A DNA stretch of 64,000 bases from Anolis carolinensis. Lineage: Eukaryota. The position numbers were made by a program, and so were the translations under genes. The stretch lies in assembly GCF_035594765.1 (NCBI RefSeq), contig NW_026943821.1, positions 13,609,608-13,673,607 of the forward strand, written 5' to 3'. Of this stretch, positions 13,163-61,963 are shown in pieces. The notes beneath the pieces are model-generated. The model searched no databases and was not told the DNA's origin. It was given only the letters and a program-made list of their open reading frames with translations. Positions within the stretch are counted from its first letter, which is position 1; each line of letters begins with the position of its first letter.

Positions 13163-14497
13163 TTAGTTGGAAACACTTTTGTGTCCAAGATTCCTCTCAA
13201 ACTTGGATCTGGCATCACCTCTCACAAGCTGCATATTGCAGTAGATGGCACTGTTCTCATCCATGGTCTGGTGGACTCTCATGTTGAATGAAGACTTTTT
13301 CTCCTTTTCTTGCTTCTCTTCCTCCTCCTTCTGCTTCTTCTGAAGCCTATAAATAAATTTTATCAGAAGGGGCTTGTCAGAACAGATAGTGATTATAAGA
13401 AAGTGTTAGATGGTTCATAGGTGAACACAGTTGAGGTGAGGAAGGACTGACCTGGATAAGCAGAGGCCAAGCAAGAAAACGCTTGCTGTAATCAAAGAAC
13501 CACAGACGGCAGAAACAAGGATTGTCACATAGGCACCTGCAATGGGGAAAAATGAAATCACAGAGAATTGGGCCAAGAATTTCAATTCCTATCCTCAGGT
13601 GAGTCCCCACAAAGCTTCTCTTCTATAAAAGCACACACTGCGGCGATTGCTTTGGACAGCAGGATTTTATCACACGTGAACATCTTTGGAGTACATATCT
13701 TCAGGGTTTTGACTGTGCATGCTATTAAAATATTTGCCAATACATTCAACATCATTCTCTGATTTTAATATCACTGTGGACCTTTGTAAGTGGAAATAGT
13801 TGGAATTAGATTTAGCAATCTACAGGAGTTAAACAGCTTCAGCTTGTGCAGAATCAGAATTTGCAATATATTAAGTAATTGGAGGATGAGCTCTTTGAAC
13901 CAAATTTATCAAAATTCATGGAATGCTTACAGGAAGTCAATCTTAATAATTAGCTGATCCCTACTAGGAATGGGAGGCCGTGATGGCGCAGCGTGTTAAA
14001 CTTCTGAGCTGCTGAACATGCTGACCAGAAGGTTGGCAGTTTGAATCCTTGGGACAGGGTGAGCTCCTGCTGTTAGCCCCAGCTTCTGCCAACCTCGCAG
14101 TTCAAAAACATGCAAATGGGAGTAGATCACTAGGTACCACTTTGGCGGGAAGCTAACGGCACTCCATGCAGTCATGCCGGCCACATGACCTAGAGGTGTC
14201 TATGGACAATGCCAGCTCTTCAGCACAGAAATGGAGATGAGCACCATCTTGACTAGACTTAACGTCAAGAGGAAACCTTTACCTTTACTAGGAATGTATG
14301 AGACTTTTATTTTAATTTTCATTTTGTCAGGTTTCACTAACATTTGCAAATTTCAGTCTGATAGGTTTACCCATAGCTAGTAAACATTATCTAGACTGCC
14401 CCCAAAATTTCAAGCAAGCATAATTTTTAAAGTGCAGATTTGCCTGAGCCCTTTCTAGGATTCTAAACATAGAACTCAGACAAATCATATCAGTGTT

Positions 14498-14546
<49 letters not shown>

Positions 14547-15253: not shown

Positions 15254-15295
<42 letters not shown>

Positions 15296-15720: not shown

Positions 15721-15763
<43 letters not shown>

Positions 15764-27808: not shown

Positions 27809-30800
27809 TCAAAAAGATCCAAAAACTGTGCAAAGATTGGGCAGAAGAGATGTTACAGATTCTGTTGGTCTCACTCTTGTGATTTGTTCACACCCACTTG
27901 GATTAAGTTGAGTCTTCCTCCAGCTTGAAAACCAGAAGACAACAAAAAATATGAAGGAACAAAGAAAAACCCTAAAAGAAAATGGCAAGAGTACATAACC
28001 ATTAGTCAGGAGGTGGGATCACATAAGAACAAGAGGATTGTGAAGGATCCAGGTAATTATTACTTGGATCCCTCACATTCCTCATTTGCCTTCAAGTTGT
28101 TTCTAATACAAAGCGTGTCTATCACAGGTTATTCTGGGGCTAAGAGTGTGACCCAGCCAAAGTCACTCAGTGAATTTCCACGTTTGAGTGGAAAATCAAA
28201 GTAATAGTCCAATTCTCAAACAACTGCACCATTCTGGCTCCCATATAAATCATTTATTCCTAAAAATCTTCCCTTTTATTTCTCCCTTTCCACTGGATGG
28301 GCATCAAAGGCAAGGGATCACTTACTTGATGAGGAGTAGACCTATCAGGAAGGAAACTACTGCAGTCAAAGATCCAAATGTTGTAGACAAGAAGTCCTTA
28401 TGGGATGCTGTAATGATAAGATCAGAAAAAAGACAACAGGAATAGTTTGCTAGCTTGTGAAAGTTCTTGTCTTAACACATAGGACCTTATCACACGCACC
28501 CTCCCACCATGCCGTTTCACCAGCAAGCTTTGTGAAACAGCAGGTGCACAGGGAGACTCCATCACCCATGTGCCACTCCAGGGCAGTGACTCTTCCCCCA
28601 TCAAATGGAGGAAGCATCACCCAACCAGGGCAGAAGTGTGCTGGTGCCATTGGAGCCAGTACAACACGGGAGCCTTCCCATGTTGATGAGGAAACGTCCT
28701 AGGATGCTTCCACATCAACTGGAGGTGGGGCCTCTTCTGGAAATTGAGGGATGTAGTGTGATGGGCTGCATGGCCATCCATCACTCAGCTGGCTACAAGC
28801 ATCCTAGGACACTTAAATTGGTAAGTATGATGAGATCCTAAGTCATCTATATATATAAAAAAGTGATGGAATCCCGGCGACGAACAAAACAACAAAACTA
28901 TATACCCCACAACCTCAAAATTTAGCAGCACAACCCCTCCTCCATGCCTCTAGGTTCATACAACAAAAATAGACAACAGGAACCACCACGGGGCCTAATA
29001 AATCCAAAAAACAAGAACGCTCCATGTGCGCCTATGCCAAAACGAGCCCCAGGCGTGGACAGAACAACCCCCACCCCTCCCCTCAATGGGAGCTCCCGCA
29101 CGCTCCCATTTTCCTGCCCTGAGGCACCGCCCACCAAAAAAAACTCACCCACCAGCCCTCAACGTGGCACCAGGGAGGAGGGAACAACAAGGCCTGCACA
29201 GAACCCCCCTCCGCCACCCTCCGGAAAGGCCTGGCCGGAACCGGGGCCAGGGGACGCGATGAGGAGAGGGCCCAGAAGGCAGACCTCCTCCCTGGCCACC
29301 CTCCTCCGGGGCCTCCTTCTCCTCATTGTCATGAGGGAAACAAAGCCAGGAGGGAGGGAGGGAGGGGCCTGGCCCACGTCGCCCTGTCGAAAAGACACAC
29401 CAACGCCATGGAGGTATGGAGAGGCGGGGGCCAGAAGGAGGAGGAGGGGGACGTAGGAAGAGTTCTCCCTCAGTTACTTTCAGTTTCTCCTCATCTACGC
29501 CTCAATTATAATAAAAACAATCACAACCACAAAAATAATAATCAACATCTTCACAGGCAAGAAGCACCCAGGCACTGAAGCTGCAAGGCCATTCAATGCT
29601 AATCAAACTTGCCAATGACAACATTCACACTTCCAAACACACAATATAATACACTTAGCCAAGCTTCACCTATCCAAGGCAGTCTACCATTTAGTACTCA
29701 ATGTTTTTGAACTTAATGTTGCAATGTTTGGGTGCTACATTCGTAAAAACAGTAATTAATACATAACATTACTGTATATCGTATGTAATAATTACTGTGG
29801 TCTAATAAGAAAACAAAACAATAGCATCTCTAAAATCAGGACACAAAATACAAAACAACATTCAGAAGACAGGGAAATTCCAGAAAGGGAAATTCCAGAC
29901 AGGAAACAATCAGGCCCAGCTAACACATCCCAACAAAGGATTCCCTCAACCAGGAAACAGCCAGGCCTCAAACCTCCAAGGCCATTCAATATAAATCAAG
30001 GTAACTAACTGCAACATTCATACTTCCTGCACTCAGACTATTCATTCCTATTCGACCTGGCCAACCAACAATTCCACAAGGTAGAAAGCAGCCAGGCTTC
30101 AAACCACCAAGACTACTAACTCCTCTTCAACCTGTCAAACCAATATTTCACTTCATTTCACTTCACTTCACTTTATTTCTTAATTAGTCGCTCTCCACCA
30201 GAGTGCTCCGAGTGACTTACAATTTAAAATATCATTCCACAATATAAAAACATTCAACATAAAAACATTCAACAGTGACTATTTGGCAAACTAGATCTGA
30301 TCTACTCAAATGCACAACCAAACAGCCAAGTCTATTTCCCCTACATAAAAAACCCCTCACGTTTGGAAGCTATCAGGCCACTCCGTTCCATTCAACCAGC
30401 CCAAACAAGGAGGTCCCTATATAGAAAGCGCCCAGGCTTAGAAGCAGCGACGCTATTCAGTGCAATTCCAATTGGCCACAGCAACGCGTGGCAAGGCACA
30501 GCTAGTGAATTTATAAAGTGCAGTTACAAACAAGTTTGAGCTTCAACTGAACCAGTGGGAAACTCACAGTTCCCACCTCCTTCAAAATGCATCCTTCAAA
30601 ATGTTTGTCAAAGTCTCTTTGCAGATAAGCTTTTGCAAGAAGTCCATACTGAAAATGGCTTCCTCTGCTCCACATACCTCAAGCATCCAAAATAGCTTCC
30701 CCCATGTTGCTGATGAACTGTGCTCAGGTGGAATAAGAAGGTGAGGAAAGAGAAGGAAGAGGGAAAGCTACCTTTGTCCATCTAGTTTGGCCCAAGGAGA

Positions 30801-33800
30801 GGTAATGGGGTGGGAGTTTTCCACACCTCTGCTTTTTCTAGATGCCTTTGCAATGAGTCCTATTTTAGCATTGATGGGTGCATACATTGATCCACCCTGT
30901 CCCCCAAATAGATTCTCTACTCATATGACTCCTATAAAGTTCAGGATAAATGACAGAATACTCCAGCATGGGAGCCAGCATGGTGGAGTATTTTGAGCCC
31001 CCGGTGGCGCAGTGTGTTAAAGCGCTGAGCTGCTGAACTTGCAGACCGAAAGGTCGCAGGTTCAAATCCGGTGAGTGGAGTGAGCGCCCACTGTTAGCTC
31101 CAGCTTCTGCCAACCTAGCAGTTCAAAAACATGCATCCAAGGACCATTATATCTTAGGGACCGCCTCATTCCTTTTTTCCATCAGTGGTCACCTCGATCC
31201 TCCTAGGAAAATCTCCTATACGTACCGGGCCCTAGGGAGGAACGCCTGGAAGATACAAGGCGTAGAGCCTTTTCGGCCTATGCTCCAATTCTGTGGAACT
31301 CATTGCCTCCATATCTTAGAGCAATATGGGAGCTGCGACCTTTTGGAAAAGCACTCAAGACTTGGCTATTTGGTTGTGCATTTACTAATCAGATCTAATT
31401 TGCCAAATAGTCACTGTTGAATGTTTTTAGGTTGAATGTTTTTATGATGAATGTTTTTATATTGTGGAATGATATTTTAAATTGTAAATCGCTCGGAGCA
31501 CTCTGCTGGAGAGCGACTAATTAAGAAATAAAGTGAAGTGAAGTGAAGTGAAGTGAAGTGAATGTGAGATCAATAGGTACCGCTCTGGCAGGAAGGTAAC
31601 GGCGCTCCATGCAGTCATGCCGGCCACATGACCTTGGCTCTTCAGCTTAGAAATGGAGATGAGCACCAACCCCCAGTCGGACATGACTGGACTTAACATC
31701 AGGGAAAACCTTTACCTTTACTAAAAGACAGAACAACTTGATCTGAAATGTAACATGAGAGCTATTAGCGGACAATGTTCAGTAACACTCTGAACAATAC
31801 CTTCCTTTAAAGGAAATCGGATGGCAACTATAATCTGCCTAATAGGCTTGAGCGATCCATGAAAAAATTGATTCTAAACTCGTTTCAAAAGTAGGGGGCG
31901 CTAGCGTTTTGTTTCTGATGTCATTTTCGAATTTTGCCCTCAAAAATTTTCGAAATTTAACAAAAATTCGTTAGTTTCAAAAGTAATTCGTTAATGGCGG
32001 ACGCGTATGCGCAGAAGCAAAAAAAAAACAGCACGAGGGGAGACTTTACAGGACTCTCCCGCCCTCATTTTTTGAGCTATCTTCTTCAAACTTGGTATAG
32101 TGGTAGAACGCATTTAACACTGATAGCTCACCAAAATTCAGAACGTTTCCCTTATCCTCTGATTTTTGGCGAATTTTAATAGCTTTTATAATAAACCATT
32201 TTTTAATAATTGCAGAAATCTGTTCCTGGTTTGAAAGTCTTATTTCCTGTTTCATTGGGTTGTCTTTACTGTGAAAATCATTGTTCTACTTCAGAAACTT
32301 TGTTTTTGTGGCTGAAACTTTGTTAAATTGGTGGACCAAACCATAATATGTTCCATCCATGTCGCTTGCACAAAGTTCAGGCAGTGTCATAGATTTTGCC
32401 ATGTTTCTATGACAGAACCAATTAGGAAATGACATTTATCACCCAGGAACAGAAATCATAGTACACCATCAAATCATTCCTGACAGATGGCCATCAGCCT
32501 CTGAATAAGGAAATAGTTCCTGGTTTGAAAGTGCTATTTCCTGTTTCATTGGCTTTTCTGGGCTGAGAGTGTGTGACTTGCCCAAGTGGGTGGCTGAGTG
32601 GGGAATCAAGCCACAATTGGAGTCCAAAATTCAAACCTCTCCCTCCCTCCTTCTCTCTAAACTTCTCATACCTTCCAAGAATTCACATACTGTATGAAAG
32701 TTTGGTCAAGATGGTCAGAGGAGGGCAACTAAAATGATCTAGGGTCTGGAGAACAAGCCCTATGAGGAGCGGCTTGAAGAACTGGGCATGTTTAGCCTGC
32801 AGAAAAGAAGGCTGAGAGGAGACATGATGTATAAATATGTGAGGGGAAGTCATAGAGAGGAGGGAGCAAGCTTGTTTTCTGCTGCCCTGCAGACTAGGAT
32901 GCGGAACAATGGCTTCAAACTACAGGAAAGGAGATTCCACCTGAACATCAGGAAGAACTTCCTCACTGTGAGCTGTTCAGCTGTGGAACTCTCTCCCCCG
33001 GGCTGTGGTGGAGGCTCCTTCTTTGGAGGCTTTTAAGCAGAGGCTGGATGGCCATCTGTTGGGAGGGATTGGATGGTGTCTTCCTGCCTGGCAGAAGGGG
33101 TTGGGCTGGATGGCCCACGAGGTCTCTTCCAACTCTACCGTTCAATGACTCTATGATTCTAAGTGAGGACAAAAGGGGGTGGGGAATGTTAAGAGGAGAG
33201 AGGGCCTGGAACACCTGGGAATTGTAGTTTTAAAGTGGGCAGGGCATAGTACTATTGGAGAAACGTTTGCTTCAGCCCAATGCTTTTATAAATGGTCACA
33301 ATTCAGAGGCTTCGTTCTCCTGCATTTTGAAAGCTATTATGATGAAATTTGCCAGAATGGAAGCAAAAATTAAGTACTCTTTGCCTATCAAGTTTCATAA
33401 TGTTTGACCCATCCACTGAATTTTGGGGATTTCTGAAGCAACATTTTTTAAAAATGTTAGCAGATCGATGACCACGCCTCCCTGTCCTCCTTCCTTCCAC
33501 TTTGATTGGCTTGCTAAGGCTTCTGGGAAATGGAGTTTTTCTCTCCTAATGGCGACTTGCTTCATTTCCACTTAAAAGAATGGTCAAAATTCAGAGGCTT
33601 CGTTCTCCTGCATTTTGAAAGCTATTATGATGAAATTTGCCAGAATGGAAGCAAAAATTAAGTACTCTTTGCCTATCAAGTTTCATAATGTTTGACCCAT
33701 CCACTGATTTTTTGGGGATTTTTGAAGCAACATTTTTTTAAAATGCTAGCAGATTGATGGCCATGCCTCTCCCTCCCTCTCTCTTCCGCTCTGATTGGCT

Positions 33801-34655
33801 GAGAGGCATGCCAACATGGCTTCTCCTCTCAGAGGGGCTACAGCTACATCCGAAGACATCAGAAACAAATGAAAAAAGGTACTTTTTTATTCAAATTCGT
33901 AATATTTGTAAGGCAGTGAGCAGATGTTTCAAATATCATTTCAAAAGTACTTCCGAAACGAATTTTTAACGAATTTAACGAACTAACGAAAAATTTGCTC
34001 AAGCCTACTGCCTAAGCCATAAAGTGATAAGAGTGATCAGATCATTTTGGGAGGACTTTAGTAGATAGCTCAGAGGTACGTACCTGTCACTGTCACAGTT
34101 GTTTGAAAGTCATGATAATTTATTCTTATTCTTCCTTTCTCCATTCTGAAGAAATAAGTCTTTTGGTCAACATCTTGAACATTGCTGATGATGAAAGAGC
34201 AAACCCCTTTCTTTAGACCTTCCAGTAGATAAAAGCGCTTGCGAGCGTACTGCGCGATCGTTTTTCGGTCATCGTTGGTGGCCACAGGAGGATCAAAGGC
34301 AATATTGCTACCTTCCTCATACCAGTATCCATACAGTTCGGCCATTTTATTGCTGGTTAATGCTGGGTACGTGAAATTGCAGGGGATGACGACAGACTGG
34401 CCCTCCTCAACTGACACAGCATGAGGGACATTCAGTGTGTAATCATACGTTGTAGACAACACACCTGCAAAGAAAACATAAGAAATTCATATCCCTTCAA
34501 TAGAGAACACTTGATCAAGGAAAAGATTCTGTAGAATAATCCAGGATGGATTCCTTATGGTCTCTGAGCTCTGTTCTCTCAATCTCTTACTTACCGTCCC
34601 AATATAGTGAGAAGAAAACCAATCCAAGCATCAAGATCTCAAAGACAGAGCTCAT
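27809..34655 (-). CDS. Siglec-like receptor B (single V-set, TM lysine, tyrosine-free tail), 228 aa
   Basis: Exons: 34595-34655 signal MSSVFEILMLGLVFFSLYWDG; 34084-34464 V-set (VSVEEGQSVVIPCNFTYP..YGYWY..PVATND..RF.L..CSF.I..D..TYFFRME); 28326-28407 ASHKDFLSTTFGSLTAVVSFLIGLLLI-AA|gtaagt; 27809-27971 ag|G-VFLCSFIFFVVFWFSSWRK...GSF*. All introns are GT-AG and all phases are compatible. Confidence 0.75.
28846..30505 (+). mobile_element. Non-autonomous Helitron with cargo, in Siglec B intron 2
   Basis: 5' A|TCtatatatataaaa; 3' hairpin gccacagcaacgcgtggc followed by CTAG|T; no TSD; same termini as 51660-52121. Confidence 0.8.
30146..30333 (-). mobile_element. L2 LINE 3' UTR fragment nested in the Helitron
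   Basis: Reverse complement of about 31358-31560, including the (GTGAA)n tail. Confidence 0.8.
30995..31722 (+). mobile_element. Sauria-type SINE interrupted by an L2 3' end (about 31135-31560)
   Basis: The SINE breaks at aaaacatgca and resumes at aatgtgag. The insert encodes GPLYLRDRL..RAFSAYAPILWNSLP..LKTWLF and ends in (GTGAA)n. Confidence 0.85.
31843..34007. mobile_element. Non-autonomous hAT-like DNA transposon containing a CR1 insertion (32714-33158) and an internal direct repeat
   Basis: TIR taggcttgagc / gctcaagccta; 8-bp TSD ctgcctaa (31835-31842, 34008-34015); direct repeat starting at 33291 and 33579. Confidence 0.85.
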
Positions 34656-35493: not shown

Positions 35494-35683
35494 TCATAGA
35501 AGTTGACTGAACACCCAATTTCTTCCCCTCTCCCTCAAATGCTGCCTCGGTTTCTGCTTATTTCTCTTATTCTTGTGTCTTCTTAATACCATAGCTGTTG
35601 GAACTCTCCTTCTCACTTGAGCTTTCCATTGAGTGGAAAAAGAAATGATGGTGAAAAAGAAGAGGAAACTGATTTTCAGTGAC
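35494..35683 (-). pseudogene. Orphan copy of the activating-Siglec TM2/cytoplasmic exon
   Basis: SLKISFLFFFTIISFSTQWKAQVRRR aligns with Siglec C ALLCFFFFISIISLFTQRKAQVMKR. Acceptor is weak and no upstream partner exons were found nearby. Confidence 0.65.
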
Positions 35684-36166
35684 CTCAAATTTCCCTTTGG
35701 GTATTGAATTATTTAAAATTAAGCATCTCAAGATACTATACATTGGTGGTTGTTCCAACAGATGACTGTTTTAACTGCACGCATTTGCTTCTCGATCTCT
35801 GTGTCTTTCATTTAGCTTGAAGCTTTCATGTGGCTTTCCATGTGGCGACTGTTAGTTTCGAGATTAGTCTTTCTAAAGCAGCTTGCACATATTAAAGTAT
35901 AGAAAACATTTCATGATATTACAACACACCTTCCAATTCTCCTAATTTGGCAGGAACAGTTTTGATTAATCCTCCACCTCTCATTTTTTCAGCTGCTTTT
36001 TAAACAATTTAGTGTTTCTCTTCCTCTCTTCCTTCCTGTTTACCCTTTGTGCTCAGTTCCCAGAAAGTGAATTCAAAATTTTAAAAACCCAATTTGCAGT
36101 AAAAGACAAGTTCATTTTATTACAAAACTTTAATTAGATCAATAATATATATAAACAAAGAATAGT

Positions 36167-40754: not shown

Positions 40755-43589
40755 TTTTTTTTTTTAAGCATTTTATTTATAATTTTCGTGATACAATAAA
40801 AGTGGAAGGAAACGTTTATATAAAAAAGGTCAGAAAGAAAAAAAAAAACCCAGACGAGTAGAGAGACCAACAAACCAAAACCGAATCCCCCCCACCTTCC
40901 TTCCTTCCTGAATGACCTTCCAGATCCTCTGCCCTGTGTATTGTGACTTACTTTTTTTTTTCTCACTTTCCCGACCCAATTTTCTTAGATCCCCAGAATG
41001 TCTTCACATAAACACCTTTTTCCCTATATTTCCAAGTTCCATTTTTCTTTTAAATATCTACTTAAATTATTCCAGTTCGTTTTTGTCGTTGTATGATATT
41101 TTTGTGAGATTATCTGCGTTAAATTGTCCATATTTTGTATGTCCATTAGTTTCAATGTCCATAGCTCTAGCGATGGAATTTCCGTCGTTTTCCAACTTTT
41201 CGCTATCACAATTCTGGCTGCACTTATCATATATATGAACAGTTTTTCATTGTTTGAGTCCATGTAAAAGTCGGTTAACCCTAGTAGCAGATATTCCGGT
41301 TTTAATGTGAATTTTATTTGTAGTATAATCTCCATCTCTTTCTTAATTTTTCTCCAGAACCTTTTGATCTTCTTACATCCCCACCACATGTGAAATAGAT
41401 CTCCCTTTTCTTTCCTACATTTCCAGCACTCTTCCCCCCTCTTTCCCTTGTTAAATTTTGCAAGTTTTACTGGCGTAATATACCACCTAAAAAATTTTTT
41501 ATACCAACTTTCCTTTATAGCTGTTGAGTATGTGTATTTTAGTCTCTTTTGCCAACATTTTTCCCAGTCTTCGAAATTTATAGTGTGTCCGAATTCCCTC
41601 GCCCATGCAATCATATTGTCCTTAACATAAACCTCTTCTGTTTCCCAGATCAAAAGCTGTTGATATAACACTTTAATCACTTTCTTTTCAAGCTTTAGAA
41701 CTTTATCCCAGGTTGTATCATTTTTCTCAAATCCTATTTGATTATCAATTTTAAAGCATTCATTGATCTGCCAGTAATTTAGCCAGGTTATAGATGGTTC
41801 TAATTGTTTAACCTCCTCATATGGTTTTATACTTATTCCGTGATTGTCTCCTCGTACTAAATGTTTGTATGTTAGCCATCTTTCCCTAGGGATCTCCCTC
41901 ATATGTTCTGATTCTAACGGAGAAAGCCATAATGGAGTCTTCCTGTAAAATTTATGCTTGTATCTCTCCCAAGTTGTTAATAATGCTTTTCTAATATAGT
42001 GGTTGTTGAAGTTTTTTTCTTTGAAACCTTTTCTTTTCCATAGATAAGCGTGCCATCCCTTATTCAGGTCCTGGCCTTCTAATGCTAAAATCCTGGTCTT
42101 CCGCAGGATAGCCCATTCCTTAACCCATTCTAGTACCGCTGCATCATAGTATATCTGGAGGTCAGGAACTCCCATTCCCCCTCTCCTGATGTCATCCTTC
42201 ATGTACTGAAATTTTATCCTTGCACGTTTTCTGCCCCAAATAAATTTGTTGATCTCTTTCTGCCAGTCACTAAGCGTTTTTTTATTTCTCAGAATGGGTA
42301 AATTTTGAAATAGGAATAGCGCTTCGGCTAAAACCTTCATTTTTATGGCAGCTATTTTTCCTAATAGCGAGAGGTTTAATGCATCCCATCTTTCCATTTT
42401 CTTTTTCACTTCTCTCCATTTTTTATCGTAGTTATTTTTCTGCAGTTGGGTATTGCTAGCTGTTAGTTCAATCCCTAGATATTTAACCTTTTTAACTACC
42501 TCTATCCCCGTTTTCTTTTGTAATTCTTCCCTCTGTGCTTGTGATATATTCTTAGTCAGTATTTTGGTCTTCTCTCTGTTTATCTTTATCCCGGCTATTT
42601 CCCCAAATTTTTCAATTGTCTCCAGCCATAACTTAATCTGATTTGTTGGTTCTTCAATCAAACATACAATGTCATCTGCATAGGCACGTGTTTTGAAAAT
42701 GATGTTTTTGGTTCTCAGCCCTTTCAGGTCTTTGTTTTTCCTGATTGCATCCAGCAGAATTTCTGATGTTAAGATGAATAGTAATGGGGAGAGAGGGCAC
42801 CCCTGTCTTGTTCCTTTCTTTATTTCTAGCGTGTCTGATAATTCCCCGTTTATTATAATCCTGGCACTCTGTTTTGAGTAGATCTTTTTTATTGCGTTTT
42901 TAAAGTAAAATCCTATATCCATCTCAGAAAGAGTCTCTAATATACAAAACCAATTAACGCTGTCGAATGCCTTCTCGGCGTCTAAAAATAAAAATGCCAC
43001 TTCTCTTTGTCTGTTTTTTTCGTAATACTCAATTGCATTCATTATTATTCTTATGTTGTCTCTTTGGTGTCTTCCGGGCAGGAAACCACATTGGTCTTCA
43101 TGAATTCTTTCTGCTAAGACATTTTTTAATCTTTCCGCCAGTATACTCGTGAATATTTTATAGTCTACATTTAACAGGGAGATCGGTCTGAAATTCGCAA
43201 CTCTAACATTATCTGTATTTTTTTTTGGTATTAGAACTATATTGGCATTTTCCCAGGATTGTGGAATCTTTTCCCCTTCCAGAATATTGTTCATTACCTT
43301 TTGTAGCGGTTTGCTTAGAATGTCCTGAAATACTTTATAATAAATAGTTGTTAGACCATCCGGCCCGGGGGCTTTATTATTGGGTAATCTTTGAATTGCT
43401 CTCACTATTTCTTCTATATCTATTTTCTTATTTAATCGTTCTCGTTGATTTTCTGTAATTTTCTTAATATTTTGCGTTCCTAAGTATTGTGTGACCTTCT
43501 CTTTAGGGATTTTATCCTCTGTGTATAGGTTCCTGTAATATTTGATAAATTGTTTTTCTATTTCTTTCCGTTCGAAATATATGTTGTTG
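40755..43589 (-). mobile_element. 5'-truncated L1 LINE with an uninterrupted ORF2 RT and CCHC region
   Basis: ORF 41024-43405 (KAPGPDG, FRPISLLN.DYK, LDAEKAFD, GTRQGCPLSPLLF, YADD, KYLG, CWKC..H..C); poly(A) at about 40755-40765; TSD catttagggatttc(ttttt) at 40741 and 43590. Confidence 0.95.
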
Positions 43590-44328
43590 CATTTAGGGAT
43601 TTCTTTTTAGCCCAGCACAGAGATGTACTTACTAGAAGTATTAGTCACTCCTCCTCTTTGCAAATTCAACAATTTATTGGAACTCTGGATGGCTGTTGCT
43701 ATGAAGGAACAAATCTCTCCCCTTTCCTGATTGGGATTTTCTGATGCTGAGCAGAATTCTGGGAAATGTAGTTTAGTGCAGGGTCTTTTGAATTCTCTGG
43801 CATTGGGCTCCTCACCTTCCCAAATTACATTTCCCAGAATTCTGTGCTTTCCCAGTCTCTTTCCCAACGATCTTTCCCAAAGATCTCTGCTTTCTCCCTG
43901 CTGTTTCCCTCTCCCAATGGTAAGAAGCCATTAATTTAAAGACAAATGGCAGACTTTTTGGCTTTGCTTTGCTTGCTTGCATTGAATAATGAAACTGATT
44001 TTGGGAGGCTTCTTAGGTTTACAAAATTCAAATGAAAAAGTGTTGGATATGTTTCGATTGGTGTGGACTGATCCATGAGGTCACGAAGAGTCAGAAATTA
44101 CTGAATGAATAAACAACAACAACACATGTTTCAATTGTTATGTTTGTGGTGTCAGCTATGCCCACATGTCAGATATCATGTTGTAAGTATGAATTTAGCA
44201 AATTTGACCCAACTTATGAGGACAAACAATAATTTTGCATAGTCCTAGTAATTGCTTCTGCTTTTTCTCTTGTCATTTCACCTATTAACATTTAGTTCCT
44301 CTCCATTTTCTTCCAGGGCAGTGAGAAC

Positions 44329-45351
44329 ATGAATGTCTTTGTGGCGAACATTTCAGAGATGGGAATGAACACCACTTACTCTCCAATTGCTATAAGCCCC
44401 ACCAATGTTATCATTGCTGTCTGTTTGTTGATATCGTTTCTAGTTGGCACAACCATAAATGGGCTCTTTCTCTGGGTGCTGGTGGTGAGGATGAAGAACA
44501 CAGTGAATGTTCTCTGGTTTCGTCACCTACTTCTCATCTTCTTAATAGTCAGTTCCATCATACCTTTTTTTGCTGTGCACCGCCTCCTTGGATTTCACTG
44601 GATCTTTGGTAATGTTCTGTGCAAGGTTCTCAATGCGCTCGGTTCGCTAGGAATGTTTTTTGAGGTATTTATCCTCACCAACATCAGCCTGGATCGCTTC
44701 TTCGCAGTATGCCATCCCATTTGGTCCCAACACAACCGCACAATTCCCAGGGCCCAACGAATCATTGCAGGAACGTGGCTTGTTTCCTTACTCTTCAGTG
44801 TCCCATACCTGATTTTTCGGGAGACTCATGAGGCAACAAATAGAAGGATTATATGTGCCAATAATTACACATTTTTTCTTGATGCAGAAAAAACCGAAAG
44901 AGATGTGCTGGCATATCACATTCAGTTGGCTCTCTTTGTCATACGATTCCTATTGACCTTTTTGCTTCCCTTTGTAATTATAGCAGGATGTTACTATAAG
45001 ATTGGAAAAGAAATTAAGAAAAGAAGATTAGTGGAACAAAATGGGAAAACGTTTAAAATCCTCATCACATCAGTGGCATCGTTTTTCATTTGTTGGCTTC
45101 CATACCATCTCTACTATGCTTCTCAGCTGTTGGGCAAACTTTCTGATGGAATACATATTTTTCTTAGTTCAGTTATGAGCGCTGGCATGTGTTTCAATTT
45201 CTGTTTCACCTCCAGTCTTTATCTCTTTGTTGGACAGAAATTCCAACAGGTCTTCAAGACATCCATTGTCACTCTGCTTCAGAGAGATTTTGCAGATGCT
45301 CCTTTCGTATTTGTTGACAATATAAACATGGAAGATGGAAACGACCAATAG
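44329..45351 (+). CDS. GPR33: GPR33-like chemoattractant GPCR copy 2, 340 aa
   Basis: INGLFLWVL..RMK.TVN.LWF.HL, ISLDRF..HPIWSQHNRT, PYLIFRETH, C.NNY, RFLL.FLLPF, SFFICWLPYH, YLFVG.KF..VFK.SI; acceptor ttttcttccag ends 12 nt before the ATG. Confidence 0.88.
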   Translation: MNVFVANISEMGMNTTYSPIAISPTNVIIAVCLLISFLVGTTINGLFLWVLVVRMKNTVNVLWFRHLLLIFLIVSSIIPFFAVHRLLGFHWIFGNVLCKVLNALGSLGMFFEVFILTNISLDRFFAVCHPIWSQHNRTIPRAQRIIAGTWLVSLLFSVPYLIFRETHEATNRRIICANNYTFFLDAEKTERDVLAYHIQLALFVIRFLLTFLLPFVIIAGCYYKIGKEIKKRRLVEQNGKTFKILITSVASFFICWLPYHLYYASQLLGKLSDGIHIFLSSVMSAGMCFNFCFTSSLYLFVGQKFQQVFKTSIVTLLQRDFADAPFVFVDNINMEDGNDQ

Positions 45352-47239: not shown

Positions 47240-48036
47240 TGTTTGTTTATTAATTTATTTGCAGTATTTATATTCTGCCTTTCTCATCCTAAAGGGCGGA
47301 TCACAGAACACACATTCAATGCAATTTATATACAGTAGAGTCTCACTTATCCAACATAAACGGGCCGACAGAACGTTGGATAAGCGAATATGTTGGATAA
47401 TAAGGAGAGATTAAGAAAAAGCCTATTAAACATCAAATTAGGTTATGATTTTACAAATTAAGCACCAGAACATCATGTTATAAAACAAATTTGACAAAAA
47501 AAGTAGTTCAATACGCAGTAATGCTATGTAGTAATTACTGTATTTACGAATTTAGCACCAAAATATCATGATATATTGAAAACATTGACTACAAAAATGG
47601 CTTGGATAATCCAGAACGTTGGATAAGCAAGTGTTGGATAAGTGAGACTCTACTGTATTGACAAAACATACAATTGTACATAGAATAGAGGTATATATAG
47701 GTTTTTTCCATCTTTGACATCTTGGAGGCTTGTGCTCGGTTTCAGCAATGGAGGAGTGCTGTCGCTCCATCTCCCTGCCGAAGAGCTTTGCTCATAAACT
47801 TCCTCCTTGATTGAATCGTCAGCATTTTTCTGGCATTTCCTTATGGATGCCTTAATACCTCCCCATTTTAAAGGGGTACCTATTTATCTACTCACATTTT
47901 GCCTTCCAACTGCTAGGTAGGCAGAAGCTAAACTAAAAGCCAGGAGCTCACCCTGACTCAAGCTTTGAACTATCAACCTTTTGATTGACAAGATTTACTG
48001 CAGCTTGTGGTTTAACCTGCTGTACTAAAGCCTGGC
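47240..48036 (-). mobile_element. tRNA-derived SINE (same family as 37945-38410) split by a mariner MITE (47333-47655)
   Basis: Head sequence matches the 37945 copy; the MITE has TIR cagtagagtctcacttatccaa and TA flanks. Confidence 0.75.
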
Positions 48037-51000
48037 AGATTGTACTGTCATTGTTGCTCTTTGTTTCTTCTTTTTCAGGAGGCACAGCAGCTTGCATCTT
48101 CTTAATGTCTGTGGTTAATCTTTTCATTACTTGAGCTTTCCGTTGAGTGAAAAGCGAAATGATGGAGATAAAGAAGAAGAAACACAGCAGCGCTCTGGAA
48201 AGAGATGGTCACTTTTTAAAACAAAAACAATGAACCAAGTGGCAGGGAGGAAGGACCCAATGTTGCTCATTTCTCCAATATTTTTCCTGGTTTTTAGCCA
48301 GGCTGCCTTAGAGGGCAGATAGTGAAACTAAAGCCAACACTTACTTGATTAGGCAGAGGACTAGCAATAATGGAACAATAGAGCCGAAATATCCTGGTGC
48401 TGTAGGTTCACCTTGGACCTCTGAAATGATTTAACCAAAATAATGTTGAGTCTTAAAATTAATTTTATGCCATAATATCCTTAAAAACAATACCAAAAGT
48501 GTGTTTGTGGAGGATCTGAACTTATAAAGTTGGGATTCAAAGAGAGCTATGTTGTCTTCTTCAGAAGAACTGGACATGGTCCCATCTTTTGACATCCCTC
48601 ATTCATGGTTTACATAGAGGAATCAGAGACCCAGTTTAATCTGAGTCCAGATTACCTGATACAAAGGGCACAATTTATGGATAGAAATAGAAAACAGCAC
48701 ACAGTGAGTAAAGAAGAGCTCTATGCAGATGGGGAATGTGTGTAGAACGTTAGAGGACAACTGAGATTGACCTATCAGCAGAAATGGGATCCAAATAAAT
48801 TAAGGGATGTGACATCCTACTGAAGTTGGGAGGATCTAAACGTTTAGGTGGAAAATTGGGTGGTGGTGTTTTATTAATTAATTTATCTTATTCCCCTTCT
48901 TTTGTGTTTTAGAATTTAAAAGAAACAAAGGAACACTTGTGGTTTAATGTTGGACCAAAGACATGGAAACCCACTGTGTGACCTTGAATAAACCTCAGCC
49001 TCCAAGGAACTTAGACAAGGGGACATTATTCTTCGACATTGGTTCTCAACTTGTAGGTCCCCAGATATTTTGGCCTTCAACTCTCATAAATCCTAACAAC
49101 TGGTAAACTGGTTGAGATTTCTGGGAGTTGTAGGTCAAAATACCTGGGGATGGGCAGGTTGAGAACCACTGTTCTAGGACAACTGCCAATGCACCTTTTT
49201 CCCTAAATGGTGCTACTCCTCCCTCTCCCCATGCACACACAACTCAATGCTATTTTAATTACGGTCAAGATTTATTTGATCTAAGAAAATGCCACTGTGC
49301 CTTCCTTACCTGTTACAGCAAACCAGAAGGTTTTCTCAGTAACGCCTTCGCTGTTTTCTGCGCGACACTTGTATGTGTCTGTATGTTGTATCTGTACACG
49401 AGGAAACTTCCATTCACTGCCTCTTATGAGATGAAATTTTCCCAAGGATTGTGTTTCCTCCACCCAAGTGACATTGGGTGAAGGGTTCCCCTTTGCCTTG
49501 CAGTGCAGTGCCACAATCTGAGTGCTATCAGTGACATCTGTGAAGCTTGTCAAATCTGCAAGATTTCAAATGGATAGAGATGTAGAGAGGAAACTAGGAT
49601 TACAATTTTCCCAAACAATATGCTCTCTTTTCTGGATTCTGTCACCAAGAATAGCTCAAGATATTTGGCTTCTTATAGCGATCTGATTTTCTATAGCTCC
49701 AAAGAACTAGATAAGACTTTCCATTCCAAAGATGTATCATCAAATACCAATCAAAATAGCAATCTCTTTATATTTTGGATTTCCGTGTGTGTGTGTGTAT
49801 GTGTGTGTGTGTTAAAGCCTGTCAGCAAAGAAGCTGACAGGAAGGAAATTATGTCATTTCAAATACAATATTGGAAGAGAGATCTACAAATAACACGGGC
49901 CACTAAAAGGATAAATGAATGTGCCCTAGAGCAAATCAGGCTTTAGAGTCCACGATGATTCATGAGAGACTACCGTAATTTGTATACATCAAGATGACCC
50001 CAATCCTGAATCCGCAAGACATGAACAGGATAATTGATGGATAGGGATCTTGATGATCTCACATTCATAGGTTTACTCAGAATGAAAGACTTCCAAGATC
50101 ACTGGTCATCTGCTCTCATGCTCTCAAGAATTCAAAGTTTTAAAACCCATCTTTCTTTTAACAGTTTGCTAGGATGCTCAGATCTACAAAAGCAAAGGAA
50201 ACTTACCTTTCTTTGATTCCATAATTTCACTGGTGATGCCTACGATTTGTGGTGGGTCTGTAAGACAAGAATAATCTCCATGTGAGGACCTGGCGGAGAT
50301 TGGAAGGACTTCTCTCCATTTCTCCCTCTCTCCCTCCTTTCTCTCTCTCTCACACACACACTCACACTCACATATGATTATCATGGTCACATACAGAGGA
50401 GATTTCAGTGAAAAAAATGGTTTTGGAGATTGAGTCCAAATTTTAAAGGAGCTCTCCAAGGTGCTGAAATATTTGGTGGCTAGAGTTTAGTCTTTCAGAT
50501 AGCCAGTTTAAGTATTGTATTGAGTAAAATCCTGAGTAGTTTATCTATAAAATGTTGGAAGGCCCTATACCAGTAGTTTTCAACCTGTGGTTCCCAGATG
50601 TTTTGGCCTTCAACTCCCAGAAATTCTAACAGCTGGTAAACTGGCTGCGATTTCTGGGAGTTGTAGGCCAAAACACCTGGGGACCCATAGGTTGAGAACC
50701 ACTGCCTGACACAGATATTGTTACAGGTTTGGACACAGACCTCTGTCCGGAACTGCTAAATGGAGGATGCCTTTTTTTGATGTGATATATTGTATCAATA
50801 TTCTGGATTAGAATGTGGGCTTTGTCTAATTTTCTCTTTCCTCCAGCAATCGGCTCTAGATAGCCAAGAAAGGCATGAAGGAAGGATGTTTAAACATGAT
50901 TCCTCCAAATGTTTATGCAGCAGCTGATGAGAATATCAGGACTAACTGCATTTTTCAGCAACAGTACTGCTCTATGGAAAATATTTTATATTAGCACTAC

Positions 51001-54000
51001 TTATTAATATTAAGTTGGTTTTGTAGCACTCTCATTATGGAGAGACACAATGCTTTGAAGCAACAGTCTGTTGCTGTTTCCCCATCTTGAAGACATGGAC
51101 AGAGGTGGGCTCGAACAACAAACATGGCTCATATTTGAATTTATGGCCACCAAAGTTTTGCCCAGGGTTTAGTAACACTAAAGCACTCCTGATTAAGAAC
51201 ATGAACATTCACAGGTTTGCCTTTTTATTCCCCAACAAAACAGAAGTGCTTTGCAAAGGGTTCTTCTTGGGTTTCCTGTCTTGGGCAACACAGTGTAAGT
51301 AATATTTAACATGCAAGCATACACAGGATATAGTGTGAGTAATATTACCCACAACGATTTCATATACACAAATGTGCATACACACACACAGTGATCCAAA
51401 GGCCATCAATTGCATGAAAGAAAATTCTTTACAAAATCGTATAATGTAGATTACTTACAACCACAAAATATCAAACCTGTTTTAAACAAAATATTTTAGA
51501 CATACAAACACACACATATGTTAATCAATATCTGCTCAATTTACATACAGTTAATAGAAGCATGGAACAAAACTTTACCTTGCTTAACTCATCCCCACCC
51601 AACAATGTGCTGAGTTGTTTGGCAGTCTATTGTATTTTACACAGTCTATTATATTTTCACTAGCTGTGCCCGGCCACGCGTTGCTGTGGCGAAGTATGGT
51701 GGTATGGGAAATAAAGTATTGAGGAATTGGTGGTAGTTAAGGTAAAGGGTAAAGTCCATTATAAATAGGTTATATAGCTGTGTGGAAGGGCCTTGAGTCT
51801 ACACTGCCATATAATCCAGTTAAATAAGATAATCTGTATTTTATAGGCAGTGTGGAAGAGGCCTAAGTGAGGCCTAACTCTGCCTGTCCCCTGGGCTGAG
51901 TGGGTTGCTAGGAGACCAAGTGGGCGGAGCTTAGCCTTCTAGCTGGCAGCAATTGGATAAAAACAATTATTCCTTATCCCTCTAATTAGGAATTTATTTT
52001 TCTTTTCTTTTTGTTGTATGAAGAGGATGAGGGGTTGTGCTGGCAAGTTTAGTGTTTCTGGGTTGTGTAGTTTGTTGTTATGTCCTAGGCCGAAATTTCA
52101 TTACCCTTTTATATATATCGATTGAAATGAGAACTCATTTCAGCTAACCAGATCAGATGTGAACAACAATGCTCTTTCTACAATATATTATGAATATAGT
52201 AGCCACTCACATCGGACGTTCAGATTGATAGTTCTTTCTCTGTAGAATTGGCTGGTTCCTGTTCCATAGCGGACAGCACAGGTGATTTTCTGCCCATCGT
52301 CTGATGCTGAGGGAATAAAGTCAAGCACAGAGGTGTAAACCTGGGGTCGCCTTTCAGAGGTCCTTGGTGTGAAATGTCTAAACATCATCTTCCATGAGAT
52401 ATGTGGAGGCTTCAAGACACAACTTCCCGGGACTGTACAAGTGATGTTTACAGGATGGTTTGCCCGAAGATTCCCAGAAACCTCTATTGCTGGATCTTGC
52501 AGTTCTAAGGAAGGAGAAGAAGGGATTTTTATCAGTATTCCCAACAGGCCTGTATCTTCTCACTAGTTGTGGTTCATCTCAGAAGGAACAGAACATTGTT
52601 GTCATTATTTCTGTTCCAGAAGAATATACCGTAATACATTTAGTTTTTTAATCTTTGATGTTCCAGGAGATAAGGAATCAGAAAAGGTAAAGGAGAAAGC
52701 CACTGGATTGCAACCTGGAAACTATTCTATATACAAAAAAGTCAAATAGTAGTTGGCCTCACTTTAGAAGAATCAGGAAGTGGTTTAACTCAAGATTCCT
52801 TTGCAATATTTGTTATGACACAAACATGACCTGCACTGTACATTCACAGACCTAATGGGCATCATTGTGGAAAAGTGTCGCATTTTTAGCAAAAAGCAAG
52901 GCAAGAAAAATGAACACAGATGAGAGGTGAGAGACAAAAGTAGCAGGAGGAATATTTTAATAGCTCCATGGACACATGAAGAGGCTCTGTAGGTTGCCTT
53001 TTTCTTAAGCGTGGGGGGGGGGGTATGCACAAAGGAGGGTATAGGGGTTTGATTTAGGACTAGCCATCTGTGCTTTGAATGCGATTTCCTGCTTCTTGGC
53101 AGGGGGTTGGACTGGATGGCCCATGAGGTCTCTTCCAACTCTACTATTCTATGATTCTATGATTCTATGACTACTTACAATGGCGCAGCGGGTTAAACCG
53201 CTGAGCTGCTGAGCTTGCTGACTGAAAGGTTGGTGAGCTCCCACTATTAGCCCTAGCTTCTGCCAATCAAGTAGTTTGAAAACATGCAAATGTGAGTAGA
53301 TCAATAGGTATCACTTCTGCGGGAAGGTAACAACGCTCCATGCAGTCATGCCAGCTACATGACCTAGGAGGTGTCTATGGACAAAGCCGGCTCTTCGGCA
53401 TAGAAATGGAGATGAGCATCAACCCCCAGAGTCAGACATGACTAAACTTAATGTCAGGGAAAACCTTTACCTTTACCTTACAGTTATGAAAACAGCGTCA
53501 GTTGGAGTTAGAAAGAAACATAAACCCCAACATGACCACTAAAGATTTTTATTCTATTTGCAATACTCTTGGGATTCTGGATATTTGGATGCCCATGGGA
53601 AGCTGGGAGTCTGGGCCTCTTTGTCCAGCTTGCGGTCAAGATTCTCTAAGGACTGTGCACAGGTGGGACCTCCTCTCCCATTCCAAGAGTCTTATAGTCT
53701 TTTAGTCTGTCTCTCTTTAGTGGAAAGATTATACTCATAAGCTTCATTGTCCAGATAATGGAGGACTCCATTATTACAGTGGGAGCCCATTTTTTCAGGC
53801 CTACATTTAGTGAGTATTCAAAAAGATGTCTGCAAATGTTCAGTATTGCCTCTCTAGAGGACCCTAGAGCATCTCAACCAATCAGAAACTACATTTATTT
53901 GGCAGTCCTCTGTAAATTATTGTACATATCTATAAATAAAATGAAATCATTGCCACAGATAAAAAAGGAGATGTTGATTTGAGGATGACACAAGAGTCTC

Positions 54001-54946
54001 CACACTCCTCTGATTCCTTTGCAAATTGAATTCCCGAAAGGTGCACAGGGTCGAAAGCCAAATCATCCTTTCTGCTCTGGAATCGACAGGTGCTTTCCCC
54101 CATTAAACATCTCTTGTTGATCCCAGTGCTCCCTGTTTCACCTTCCTACACTTCTATATTTGTTTGTGTCACAATTATTGTGCACTGCATTTCATGGAAT
54201 GGTTTATTCAGAAGATCATGTTGGCCAAGAGATGGATCTAAGAAGCTGTGAGATGAACATTAGGAGTCATAGCAGCTGCGCTACAACTAGCAGTGAATGT
54301 ATTTGTGTATTTCACTAGAAGCTTTTATGGGAGCCAGATGTTTTTATCACCACTCACCTTTTACATTCACTTGCAGTTCGCTCCGGAAATTAAACTTTGC
54401 TTTAGGATCTTTCTCTATTCTAAAGCAGTAGTTCCCTCCATCATTATTTTGGGCATCATTGATGACAAGAGAACAGTTGCCTTCTTCCACTTCCTCTGAA
54501 AGAAAAAAGCGATTTCGAGCATTTTCTGCTATAGTTTTGTTTGGGTCATTGGTGGCCACTAAAGAAAGCGACTCAAAACAACTTCCCTTGAACCAGTATC
54601 CATACATTTTGGAAGTGCTTCGGGCATCATTTGGGTCATAAGTGAAGTTGCAGGGGATGAAGACACAGAGTCCCTCTTGGACTGTCACAGGTTGGACATA
54701 AAGCGTATATAGTTTTATGTCACACTGTCCACCTGGAAAGAGAGGACAAGAAGCTCAACGATACAGGCAAAGAACACCAGACTTACACCTTCCCCTTACT
54801 GGAAATGATGGGATGATCATTTCCATCTCTGGGCCCAAACTAAGGCCCGGAGGCCGGATCAAAGCTATCTATCCGGCCCCCACGGCACAAGGGCAGAAGA
54901 GGGTTGGGCTAAATGACCCAAGGGGCCTCTTCTTCTTTTACAACCC

Positions 54947-55165: not shown

Positions 55166-55497
55166 ATTGAGGCTGGGTGGCCATCTGTCAGGGGTGCTTT
55201 GCTTGTGCTTTCGGTGCACAAAGGCAGAAGGGGAATGGACTCAATGGCCCAAAGGGTCTCTTTCAACTCTTTTATTATTGTTGTTATTATTATTATTATT
55301 GCTCGGTGGCCAACTATAGTCCGGCCCTCTAACGGTCCGAAGGATCGTGAACTGGCCCCCTGTTTAAAACGTTTGGGGACTGCTGATCCAGAGAATGGAC
55401 TTCTCTCCCTCTTTTCAGTCTCCTCCCAGTTCTTACCCTCCCAAAAGAGACCAATTGAAAGAAGCCTGAGAACCAAGATTTCAAGGAGGTAATGCAT
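47948..55497 (-). CDS. Siglec-like receptor C (V-set + C2 + linker + I/C2, TM lysine), 449 aa
   Basis: Exons: 55437-55497 signal; 54358-54732 V-set (VTVQEGLCVFIPCNFTY..YGYWFK..VATND..NRFFL..GNCSLVI.DA..D.GNYCFRIE); 52211-52504 C2 (NITCTVPGSC..PPHISW..SVL.F.P...DDGQKITC.V); 50207-50257 linker YPPQ; 49310-49555 Ig (LHCKAKGNPSPNVTW..YKCRAEN); 48345-48420 and 47948-48194 split TM GSIVPLLLVLCLI-K-ALLCFFFFISII. All introns are GT-AG and in frame. Confidence 0.85.
49037..49171. mobile_element. hAT-type palindromic MITE
   Basis: Same family as 10150-10284. Confidence 0.8.
50572..50704. mobile_element. hAT-type palindromic MITE
   Basis: Same family as 10150-10284. Confidence 0.8.
51660..52121 (-). 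mobile_element. Short non-autonomous Helitron in a Siglec C intron
   Basis: Minus strand: A|TCgatatatataaaa ... gccacagcaacgcgtggccgggcacagCTAG|T. Confidence 0.8.
53070..53478 (+). mobile_element. CR1 3' tail followed by a Sauria-type SINE
   Basis: (ATTCTATG)n at about 53146-53170, then the SINE at 53178-53478 with (ACCTTT)n tail. Confidence 0.85.
54828..55385. mobile_element. hAT-like non-autonomous element with tandem CR1-tail-derived units and (TTA)n
   Basis: Ends cccaaactaaggcccg / aacgtttggggac; about three internal units ggccatctgtcaggggtgctttg...gggtctcttccaac separated by (TTA)n. Confidence 0.65.
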
Positions 55498-59710: not shown

Positions 59711-60946
59711 CATTATATTGTCGCACAAAGATGATATTCTACACTAGTCACATGATTGTGGGTAATGGCAACATGCTGGGATGACTGCCCTTGCCATTGC
59801 ACCTCTTGGCATTTGCACACCTGCACCAATTCACTGACTTGTGGTCCCACAGCCATACTTCTGCTTTAGTCTCCTAGCAGATTTTCTGTCTGCTTTAGGG
59901 GATCATCATCATCATCACCATCACCATCTGTGGCTGGATCTGAAGATGCCAGCTACAGATGCAGGTGAAACATCAGGAGAAAATGCTGCTAGAAAGCAGT
60001 CATATAGTCCAGAAACCACAAACTGGGAGCACTGAATTTGGGGTGACTATGGGTTTTTTTCTTTGTGTATGGCTAGCCTGCCTTTAAATTTTTCCCCATT
60101 TGCTCTGTCACCTGTCGTGGTAGTGTATCTGGCCATAGTTACACTTTCATATGTGTCAGCACGTATAGAGTAATAGTCATCTCTCTCTTAATCTCTTTCT
60201 CCTCCATCAAGAAGGTGAGTGCAGGCTTTGGTGAGTTAGTCCTCTTTTTGGAAATTTTCTATAGTTTGCCACTGTGGTTAGATATGTTTGAATGTAGCTT
60301 TAAATTTAATTAGTACGGTTTTTAGGTATGCAGTTTGCTTAATACCTATTTGATTTACTTATCTAAAACTAGACTCAGTCTGCATCTACACTGTAAAATG
60401 AATGCAGTTTGACAGCATTTTAACTGTCATGGCTCAATACTATGGAACCATGGGTGTTTTAGTTTTACAAAGTCTACTCTGCCAAAGAGTGCTGATGCCT
60501 CACTAAACTACAAATCTCAAGAAAAACTGCACATCTAAATATCTGATAGCATTGGGTCATAGCCATTACAATAGTGTCAAATTGTATTAATTCTACGATG
60601 TAGATGCACCCTTAGAAAGACCCAACAATTCAGCACTTCCATTTGAAAGTGTATATGAGGCAGAGTCTTTATTGAGTCAGGCTTCATCTTTCTCAGGAAA
60701 AGAGCTAACATTTCAGGAAATCTGCTTCTAATACAACAAAAGCCTAGCGAGTTCAATTATTTTACTCTGAATGCTATATCCACTAAGCACAGAAAACCGA
60801 ATTCAGTATCCTATTTTCTCATCTTCTAGTGTTCTCAGCCTATGTGTTCTTATGCTGGTTTAGTCAACCGTAACCCTTTCTCACCATCTACCTGCAATTC
60901 AGACTTCTTTTCTGTCTTCCTTCAAGGCCTCATAGACACAAGCAGG

Positions 60947-61963
60947 ATGCCCTCTCTCTTGGAGAACACCTCAACTGTAAATATGAACAACAGCCATTTT
61001 CTAGAACCTTTCAAACCCACCAATGTGAGCATCACCATCCTTATCTTGGTGGCTTTTCTGATGGGGACAACTGTGAATGGGCTCTTCCTTTGGATGCTGG
61101 GGCTGAGGATGAAGAAGACAGTCAACACCTTTTGGTTCCACCACCTGATCCTCACCAACTTGATCTCCTGTCTCATTCTGCCCTTCTTTGCTGTCTACGT
61201 CCTTCATGATTTCCACTGGATTCTAGGGACCGTTGTGTGCAAGATTATAAAATCCTTATTTTCAATGGTCATGTTCACTACTGTTTTTCTTCTCACCACC
61301 ATCAGCCTGGACCGGTACTTCTTCATCTGCTATCCTGTTTGGTCTCGGCAGTACCGTACAATTCCCAGAGCAAAGAGACTGGTCACTGGGTTATGGCTCA
61401 GCTCCATAACCCTGAGTATTCCCAGTTTGGTTCTTCTGGAGACTCAAGAGGTGCAGAACAAGATGCAGTGTGATTACACTTTTGTTTTCTCCAAAGATGC
61501 ATCCTTTCACTTAGCTTTCTTCCTGGTTCAGTTCCTGCTAGCCTTCCTGCTTCCTTTCCTCACCATGCTAATATGCTACTGTTGGATCGGTTTTGAATTG
61601 AAGAGGAAGCACTTGGTGAAGACCGGGAAACCTTTCCGAATCCTGGTGACTGCAGTGGCATCGTTTTTCATCTCCTGGCTTCCCTACCACTTCTACAATG
61701 CTTTTCATTCTTTTCGGATAGCATCAGAAAGAACGAATCAGATTCTATGGGATATTGCCGCTGCTGGAGGCTGTTTCAATATTTGTTTCACCCCCATTGT
61801 TTATCTCTTTGTTGGGGAGAAGTTCCATCAGGTTTTCAAGATGCCTGTGATTTCCCTGTTTAGTAAATACTTTGAGGATTATCCTAGGATTCCTGGGGAG
61901 AATACCAACACTGGGCAGGAGCTTGACCATAGCCATGGAGAAACAACCAGAATGCAAAGCTGA
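60947..61963 (+). CDS. GPR33: GPR33-like chemoattractant GPCR copy 3, 338 aa
   Basis: VNGLFLWML..RMKKTVNTFWFHHL, ISLDRY..PVWS..RT, FLL.FLLPF, KPFRILVTAVASFFISWLPYH, FTPIVYLFVGEKF; acceptor tcttccttcaag upstream of ATG 60947. Confidence 0.88.
   Translation: MPSLLENTSTVNMNNSHFLEPFKPTNVSITILILVAFLMGTTVNGLFLWMLGLRMKKTVNTFWFHHLILTNLISCLILPFFAVYVLHDFHWILGTVVCKIIKSLFSMVMFTTVFLLTTISLDRYFFICYPVWSRQYRTIPRAKRLVTGLWLSSITLSIPSLVLLETQEVQNKMQCDYTFVFSKDASFHLAFFLVQFLLAFLLPFLTMLICYCWIGFELKRKHLVKTGKPFRILVTAVASFFISWLPYHFYNAFHSFRIASERTNQILWDIAAAGGCFNICFTPIVYLFVGEKFHQVFKMPVISLFSKYFEDYPRIPGENTNTGQELDHSHGETTRMQS

Follow-up and report, generated by a model that had tools for sequence, protein, structure and literature searches.

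The window analysed here, a stretch of 64,000 nucleotides from Anolis carolinensis (contig NW_026943821.1), contains on its minus strand a Siglec gene, gene C, whose membrane helix is encoded by two exons that meet in the codon of a lysine. We consider it probable (roughly 0.7) that the product is an activating receptor working through a DAP12-type adaptor, and that a lysine formerly placed at the membrane edge has become buried in this helix. Judged from sequence comparisons, the arrangement appears to be a real and old variation on activating Siglecs that is shared across lizards.

Gene model, splice joint and Ig head of gene C

The donor after 48345 (..ATC AA/gtaagt) and the acceptor before 48194 (ttccag/A GCG) on which the original prediction rested were both read in the sequence. 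A seven-exon GT-AG model (Table 1) yielded a single open frame of 449 aa, identical letter for letter to RefSeq XP_062818555.1 (Anolis carolinensis). The codon of Lys368 is split AA/A by a 150-nt phase-2 intron, so that the helix is indeed divided over two exons at the lysine, and the tail agrees with the earlier description in having no tyrosine after the helix and no ITIM. The proposal that splicing creates the lysine had to be abandoned: two of the three bases (AA) are exonic, and unspliced read-through at the donor gives AAG, also Lys, followed by a TAA stop. What splicing of gene C supplies is the other half of the helix, rich in Phe, and not the lysine.

Four of 24 listed sequencing runs (X3, X5, X6 and X7) were aligned to positions 47660-49600; that they represent RNA is a guess, none of those listed being on record as such. 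Coverage by X3, X5 and X7 comprised exons and repeats only, and X6 read through the 150-nt intron in a DNA-like manner. The predicted junction was recovered exactly in one contig of one of the four runs, X3, which joins 48194 to 48345 (skip of 150, CT..AC, short side of 64 letters, 0 mismatches, depth 3.7). Contigs of X5 stop short of covering this joint. One of them is spliced from a donor within exon 5, after 49497, with a frameshift and a stop in exon 6 as the outcome; this cryptic donor reads GC in the window and GT in the allele of X6 and P0011 (A281V).

A SINE provides the last ~90 coding nt of gene C, its stop codon and its 3' UTR, and is crossed by contigs. Destruction of an ITIM by this insertion was ruled out, as the A. 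sagrei relative has neither such a tail nor a tyrosine.

Gene C has the layout of a type I membrane protein, in which Pfam recognized a V-set plus two more Ig domains, in line with the three Ig domains proposed before. Its best solved relatives were Siglec-8 (E 5e-38), CD33 (8e-35) and Siglec-5 (1e-33), followed by MAG (8e-24), CD22 (1e-13) and sialoadhesin (7e-6). Arg125 aligns to the F-R motif in the F strand of Siglec-8 and CD33, the position of the arginine that we take to be essential in these two receptors. The Siglec cysteine pattern is present as well (predicted bonds), formed by Cys43, Cys48 and Cys107, which are nearly invariant among 30 relatives, and by Cys174 in the first C2 domain. 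By these features gene C is to be classed as a three-Ig CD33-related Siglec. Its V-set carries two extra cysteines, Cys72 and Cys123, common to the Anolis ITIM paralogues; Cys123 lies two residues from Arg125, and an extra disulfide beside the sugar site is possible.

In a V-set tree, which left out Candoia, a tortoise and a frog because the anchor motif was absent, all 17 lizard V-sets split from the 4 mammalian-type rows with support of 100/98. Gene C did not group with one mammalian gene, as the RefSeq name 'Siglec-12' would imply, and would have no one-to-one mammalian orthologue. The original prediction had leaned on Siglec-15, which does not fit the solved relatives named above. Membership of Siglec-15 was ruled out: gene C has three Ig domains and Siglec-15 has two (PMC6941304), and no Siglec-15 was among the best 60 of 68 matches.

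Table 1. Positions within the window of gene C parts and of neighbouring features
Feature	Position	Strand	Basis
Gene C exon 1, signal peptide	55437..55497	-	model; start of XP_062818555.1
Gene C exon 2, V-set with Arg125, Cys43, Cys48, Cys107	54358..54732	-	model, Pfam, alignment
Gene C exon 3, first C2-type Ig domain with Cys174	52211..52504	-	model, Pfam
Gene C exon 4, 17-codon linker	50207..50257	-	model
Gene C exon 5, second C2/I-type Ig domain; cryptic donor after 49497	49310..49555	-	model, Pfam, run contig
Gene C exon 6, stalk and first helix half, ending in AA of Lys368	48345..48420	-	model, run contig
Gene C 150-nt phase-2 GT-AG intron in Lys368 codon	48195..48344	-	model; X3 joint
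Gene C exon 7, first 54 nt, Phe-rich second helix half; skipped in frame in X7	48141..48194	-	
Gene C exon 7, remainder, basic stop-transfer residues and Tyr-free tail	47948..48140	-	
SINE at the 3' end of gene C	~47700-48040	-	
Gene B	27809-34655	-	
Gene B first helix exon, ending ATC AA/gtaagt	28326..28407	-	
Gene B last exon, Phe-rich second half, same register as gene C	27809..27971	-	prediction
Gene A	13163-17149	-	
Gene A helix, all in one exon; phase-2 intron in Arg at its end (ordinary layout)	13452..13536	-	
Orphan copy of gene C last-exon start	35590-35686	-	
860-codon open frame	41027-43606	-	
Single-exon chemoattractant-type GPCR frame	2697-3884	-	
Single-exon chemoattractant-type GPCR frames	21697-23016, 44296-45348, 60830-61960	+	

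A lizard-wide family of lysine-containing helices

Relatives were drawn from the best 150 matches of a search of 1.84 billion representatives, and a hydropathy scan of those with at most 1700 residues revealed six more proteins with a helix of the gene C type. A helix profile search, in which 7997 candidates were scored, added one gecko protein and returned no member from snakes, tuatara, turtles or mammals, the latter being a weak negative; a match at E 4.8 was a non-Ig protein and was dropped. A word-index search with residues 255-449 of gene C returned the query alone (1 of 304 candidates) and was uninformative. Beyond A. carolinensis, the helix occurs in Anolis sagrei, Elgaria, Rhineura, Eublepharis, Paroedura, Tiliqua and Pogona. 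The pattern LxL[INT]K[VA][LF][LF]C, derived from these helices, matched 12 of the 178 collected proteins, all from lizards, and the corresponding family comprises nine distinct sequences, including gene B of the window, from eight lizard species ranging from geckos to iguanians. Most members are gene predictions; those outside Anolis are known as proteins, and the intron position comes from Anolis DNA alone.

The lysine is invariant in the nine sequences. In each of them it is preceded by 8-11 hydrophobic residues and, by hydropathy, is residue 9-12 of the highest-scoring 23-residue window. The first Lys or Arg beyond it follows after 17-19 residues in eight members and after 13 in Tiliqua. 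Within the second helix half Leu, Cys and Phe positions are invariant and the length is nearly fixed across the eight species. Tyrosine is absent beyond Lys+17 in seven of the nine members, and the other two resemble models fused to the next gene.

The arrangement of gene C is repeated in gene B, whose first helix exon ends in the same split codon and whose predicted last exon continues in the same register. Since the V-sets of the two genes are 44% identical, the shared split indicates that the one in gene C is not a product of chance. That gene C by itself had recently gained the exon was ruled out, the half helix being common to gene B and seven other species. Gene B itself encodes a one-Ig (V-set only) Lys-type Siglec of 228 aa with a counterpart in Pogona, and its last exon contains an in-frame inner AG 48 nt in. 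In mammalian Siglecs the basic helix residue lies inside one exon, and a helix split over two exons is, to our knowledge, unusual among them.

On the V-set tree the heads that carry this helix are scattered: well-supported branches force at least three changes, and a single Lys-type clade was found in 0 of 200 bootstrap trees. Such scatter is expected if one helix cassette has been joined to different heads. Two gecko members, P0066 and P0176, are without the F-strand Arg and may thus bind a ligand other than sialic acid.

Among the Anolis proteins, P0015 is the closest ITIM paralogue of gene C by its V-set (76% identity; 41-53% in the C2 domains) and has two ITIM-type motifs. BLASTP found no match between the helices and tails of the two, so the helix of gene C does not simply derive from its present partner. 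In the amphisbaenian Rhineura, the Lys-type P0033 and the ITIM-type P0172 differ at 6 positions in their first 445 residues (printed alignment). An older-assembly ITIM model (P0017 / P0016) has its first 57 residues in common with gene C, through gene conversion or as an assembly chimera.

Probable origin of the buried lysine

Inhibitory CD33-related Siglecs of reptiles (XP_053123439.1 from Hemicordylus, P0009 from Podarcis, P0015 from Anolis) have the same Ig types as gene C. In several of them the helix ends in the same L..LIK motif, as in Hemicordylus, where LLVLCLIK is followed by FYKKRK. After the lysine the inhibitory receptors proceed to a basic cytoplasmic stretch and ITIMs, whereas gene C proceeds to a second hydrophobic half. 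The phase-2 intron of gene A falls in a basic residue (Arg) at the helix end, and ITIM-type isoforms (Anolis P0015/P0016, Rhineura P0171-P0173) diverge directly after the helix-end basic pair. Together with the likeness of the helix ends, this suggests that both the intron and the lysine of gene C are likely to be the ordinary ones.

Helix sequences were compared in registers placed by hand, and Fisher p-values were set aside because the sequences are related to each other. Aligned in register to the helix ends in 12 reptile Siglecs not of the Lys type, the seven residues before the lysine scored a mean BLOSUM62 of 1.54; the next best shift gave 1.12, and the lead over the -2 shift was modest. 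With six and ten residues before the lysine, scores were 1.64 and 1.10 against the inhibitory reptile helix ends, and -0.04 and 0.08 against seven mammalian-type Lys helices (three of the seven from named mammals). For the residues after the lysine the agreement with mammalian Lys-type helices was weak (0.5). As the part before the lysine matches inhibitory helix ends and not mammalian Lys helices, an ancestral stop-transfer lysine has likely been buried. From this comparison, the buried residue is likely to be the one with which the exon of inhibitory Siglecs ends, and the new part of the helix is likely to be the hydrophobic stretch that opens the next exon.

Phenylalanine makes up 44 of 117 residues after the lysine in the lizard family versus 6 of 117 before it, and 7 of 91 after the lysine in the mammalian-type set. 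The Phe-rich half occupies the usual position of a polypyrimidine tract, which suggests that the acceptor has shifted upstream. In such a shift the acceptor would take in the T-rich tract and the next exon would gain a Phe-rich hydrophobic start; the membrane window would then move, and a lysine at the membrane edge would become buried. Pyrimidine content is only slightly raised in the added half (0.74, 0.75, versus 0.64-0.69 in the first half), so that the DNA lends little support to a captured tract. We would give somewhat less than an even chance to the conjecture that the second half arose from the polypyrimidine tract of the intron. More tentative still is the full scenario, in which a single acceptor shift, before geckos branched off, turned the T-rich tract into a Phe-rich half of a helix and set the lysine at DAP12 depth, the resulting cassette was re-used on different heads, and an acceptor 54 nt further downstream still switches the receptor, by allele or by splicing, to an uncoupled form.

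The usual explanation for activating partners of inhibitory receptors is a point mutation by which the helix gains a basic residue, as for the lysine of KIR2DS-type receptors (PMC1440944), whereas the lizard helix seems to have moved around a lysine already in place. The family thus points to a second route, in which the helix is displaced around a residue present at the membrane edge of all such receptors. This route is likely to be new: no precedent for exon gain from polypyrimidine tracts or for two-exon activating helices was found in the literature consulted. Nor was any study of this lizard Siglec family found in that search, which covered few subscription papers.

Proposed adaptor coupling, competing readings and the locus

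In gene C, Lys368 occupies position 9 of the best 23-residue helix window, behind Pro359, as judged by hydropathy. AlphaFold2 predicted one continuous helix over residues 357-402 and no hairpin, with a pLDDT of 87-88 over residues 361-380. Both the membrane helix and the resemblance of its lysine to that of DAP12 partners, as put forward originally, were thus borne out by prediction, position 9 being also that of the lysine in the type I helix of activating KIR2DS and other DAP12 partners, whose flanking residues are variable (PMC1440944). According to Feng et al. (PMC1440944), assembly with DAP12 needs no more than a lysine at position 9 of an otherwise plain poly-Leu or poly-Val helix, and lysine prefers DAP12 over FcR-gamma. 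The head of gene C would bind a sialoglycan, Lys368 would pair with aspartates in a dimeric DAP12-type adaptor, and assembly would lead to Syk signalling that offsets the ITIM paralogues with their similar ligand-binding heads.

Lys-type and paired Siglecs are already known (PMC6288428, PMC5701461, PMC6890642, PMC6941304, PMC13107469, PMC9008986). The DAP12-coupled ones, human Siglec-14, -15 and -16 and mouse CD33 and Siglec-H, combine a Siglec head and a basic helix residue with the absence of an ITIM, as does gene C (PMC6890642, PMC6288428, PMC6941304). The lizard receptors differ from them in that their V-sets branch apart from the sampled mammalian ones, their lysine lies on an exon joint, and the residues upstream of it match inhibitory helix ends. 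In Siglec-5/14 and Siglec-11/16, like heads are combined with opposite tails, gene conversion maintains the likeness of the heads and null alleles of the activating member are frequent (PMC5701461, PMC6288428). The near-identical Lys-type/ITIM pair of Rhineura and the scatter of Lys-type heads on the V-set tree are reminiscent of these pairs, although the lizard receptors are likely of independent origin and gene C and P0015 form a looser pair than the primate ones. The lizard family offers a starting point for work on paired reptile Siglecs, on which the same literature search found no study.

Against this activating reading stands a joint seen in one contig of X7, a sample with 15 differences in exon 5, which links the donor after 48345 to 48140 and so uses an acceptor 54 nt further downstream. 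Eighteen codons are thereby dropped in frame and the lysine comes to lie directly before the basic tail, back at the membrane edge; X7 shows this short form only. The inner acceptor site of gene C reads CG, not AG, in the window, so X7 probably carries an AG allele at a base (48142) outside the visible contig, a change that would leave the encoded Arg unaltered. If the short form were the working product, gene C would be a signalling-dead decoy with its lysine at the cytoplasmic edge, and the Phe-rich stretch would be mostly intronic tract, taken in by gene finders and by a minor splice. The remaining helix still reaches 1.93 in a 19-residue Kyte-Doolittle window, the inner AG of gene B offers a similar in-frame site, and the family members are mostly predictions. 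We nevertheless regard the decoy as unlikely, because X3 uses the outer acceptor, the window has no AG at the inner site, 8-11 hydrophobic residues before the lysine are short for a helix, and the invariant residues and nearly fixed length of the second half over eight species are unlike intron sequence. The short and frameshifted forms of gene C are reminiscent of the null alleles known from human SIGLEC14 and SIGLEC16.

An activating function would also result if the helix descended from one ancestral to mammalian Lys-type CD33-related Siglecs, with one intron acquired within it and the intron behind it lost. Both sets indeed have the lysine followed by aliphatic residues and Cys, with the score of 0.5 given above; we give this descent little credence, however, as it needs two intron changes versus none, and both the residues before the lysine and the share of Phe after it depart from the mammalian-type set. 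A somewhat smaller chance is left for a buried lysine that serves another end, be it coupling to FcR-gamma or DAP10, retention in the ER or an inhibitory outcome through DAP12. Mouse CD33 has the lysine and is Dap12-dependent, yet is without a clear activating role (PMC6890642), and basic residues in helices can cause ER retention (PMC13107469); type I receptors with a central Lys, however, pair with DAP12, partners of FcR-gamma have an Arg near position 3, and DAP12 occurs in amphibians and fish (papers including PMC1440944). Finally, the 31-residue hydrophobic stretch of gene C, with ~15 apolar residues on each side of the lysine, might be taken for a helical hairpin with the lysine in its turn and a tail that is not cytoplasmic. 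This is very improbable, since in all nine members the run before the lysine starts after a Pro or a polar residue and is no longer than 8-11 residues, basic residues come after the second half, and the AlphaFold2 model is one straight helix. The preferred reading remains a DAP12-coupled receptor with a single helix.

The three Siglec genes A, B and C of the window lie among four GPCR frames, three of which alternate with them on the opposite strand. Two of the frames were compared and matched FPR2 and CMKLR1 about equally well. The human CD33-related Siglec cluster is linked to formyl-peptide-receptor-like genes. Gene A, whose start codon is provisional, combines a V-set and one membrane-proximal domain with an ordinary helix and one Tyr motif in its tail. 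Between genes B and C lies an orphan copy of the start of the gene C last exon (87% over 55 nt), for which no matching upstream exon was found and which is likely the relic of another family member. The 860-codon open frame is presumably, judging by its motifs, a LINE-1-type reverse transcriptase.
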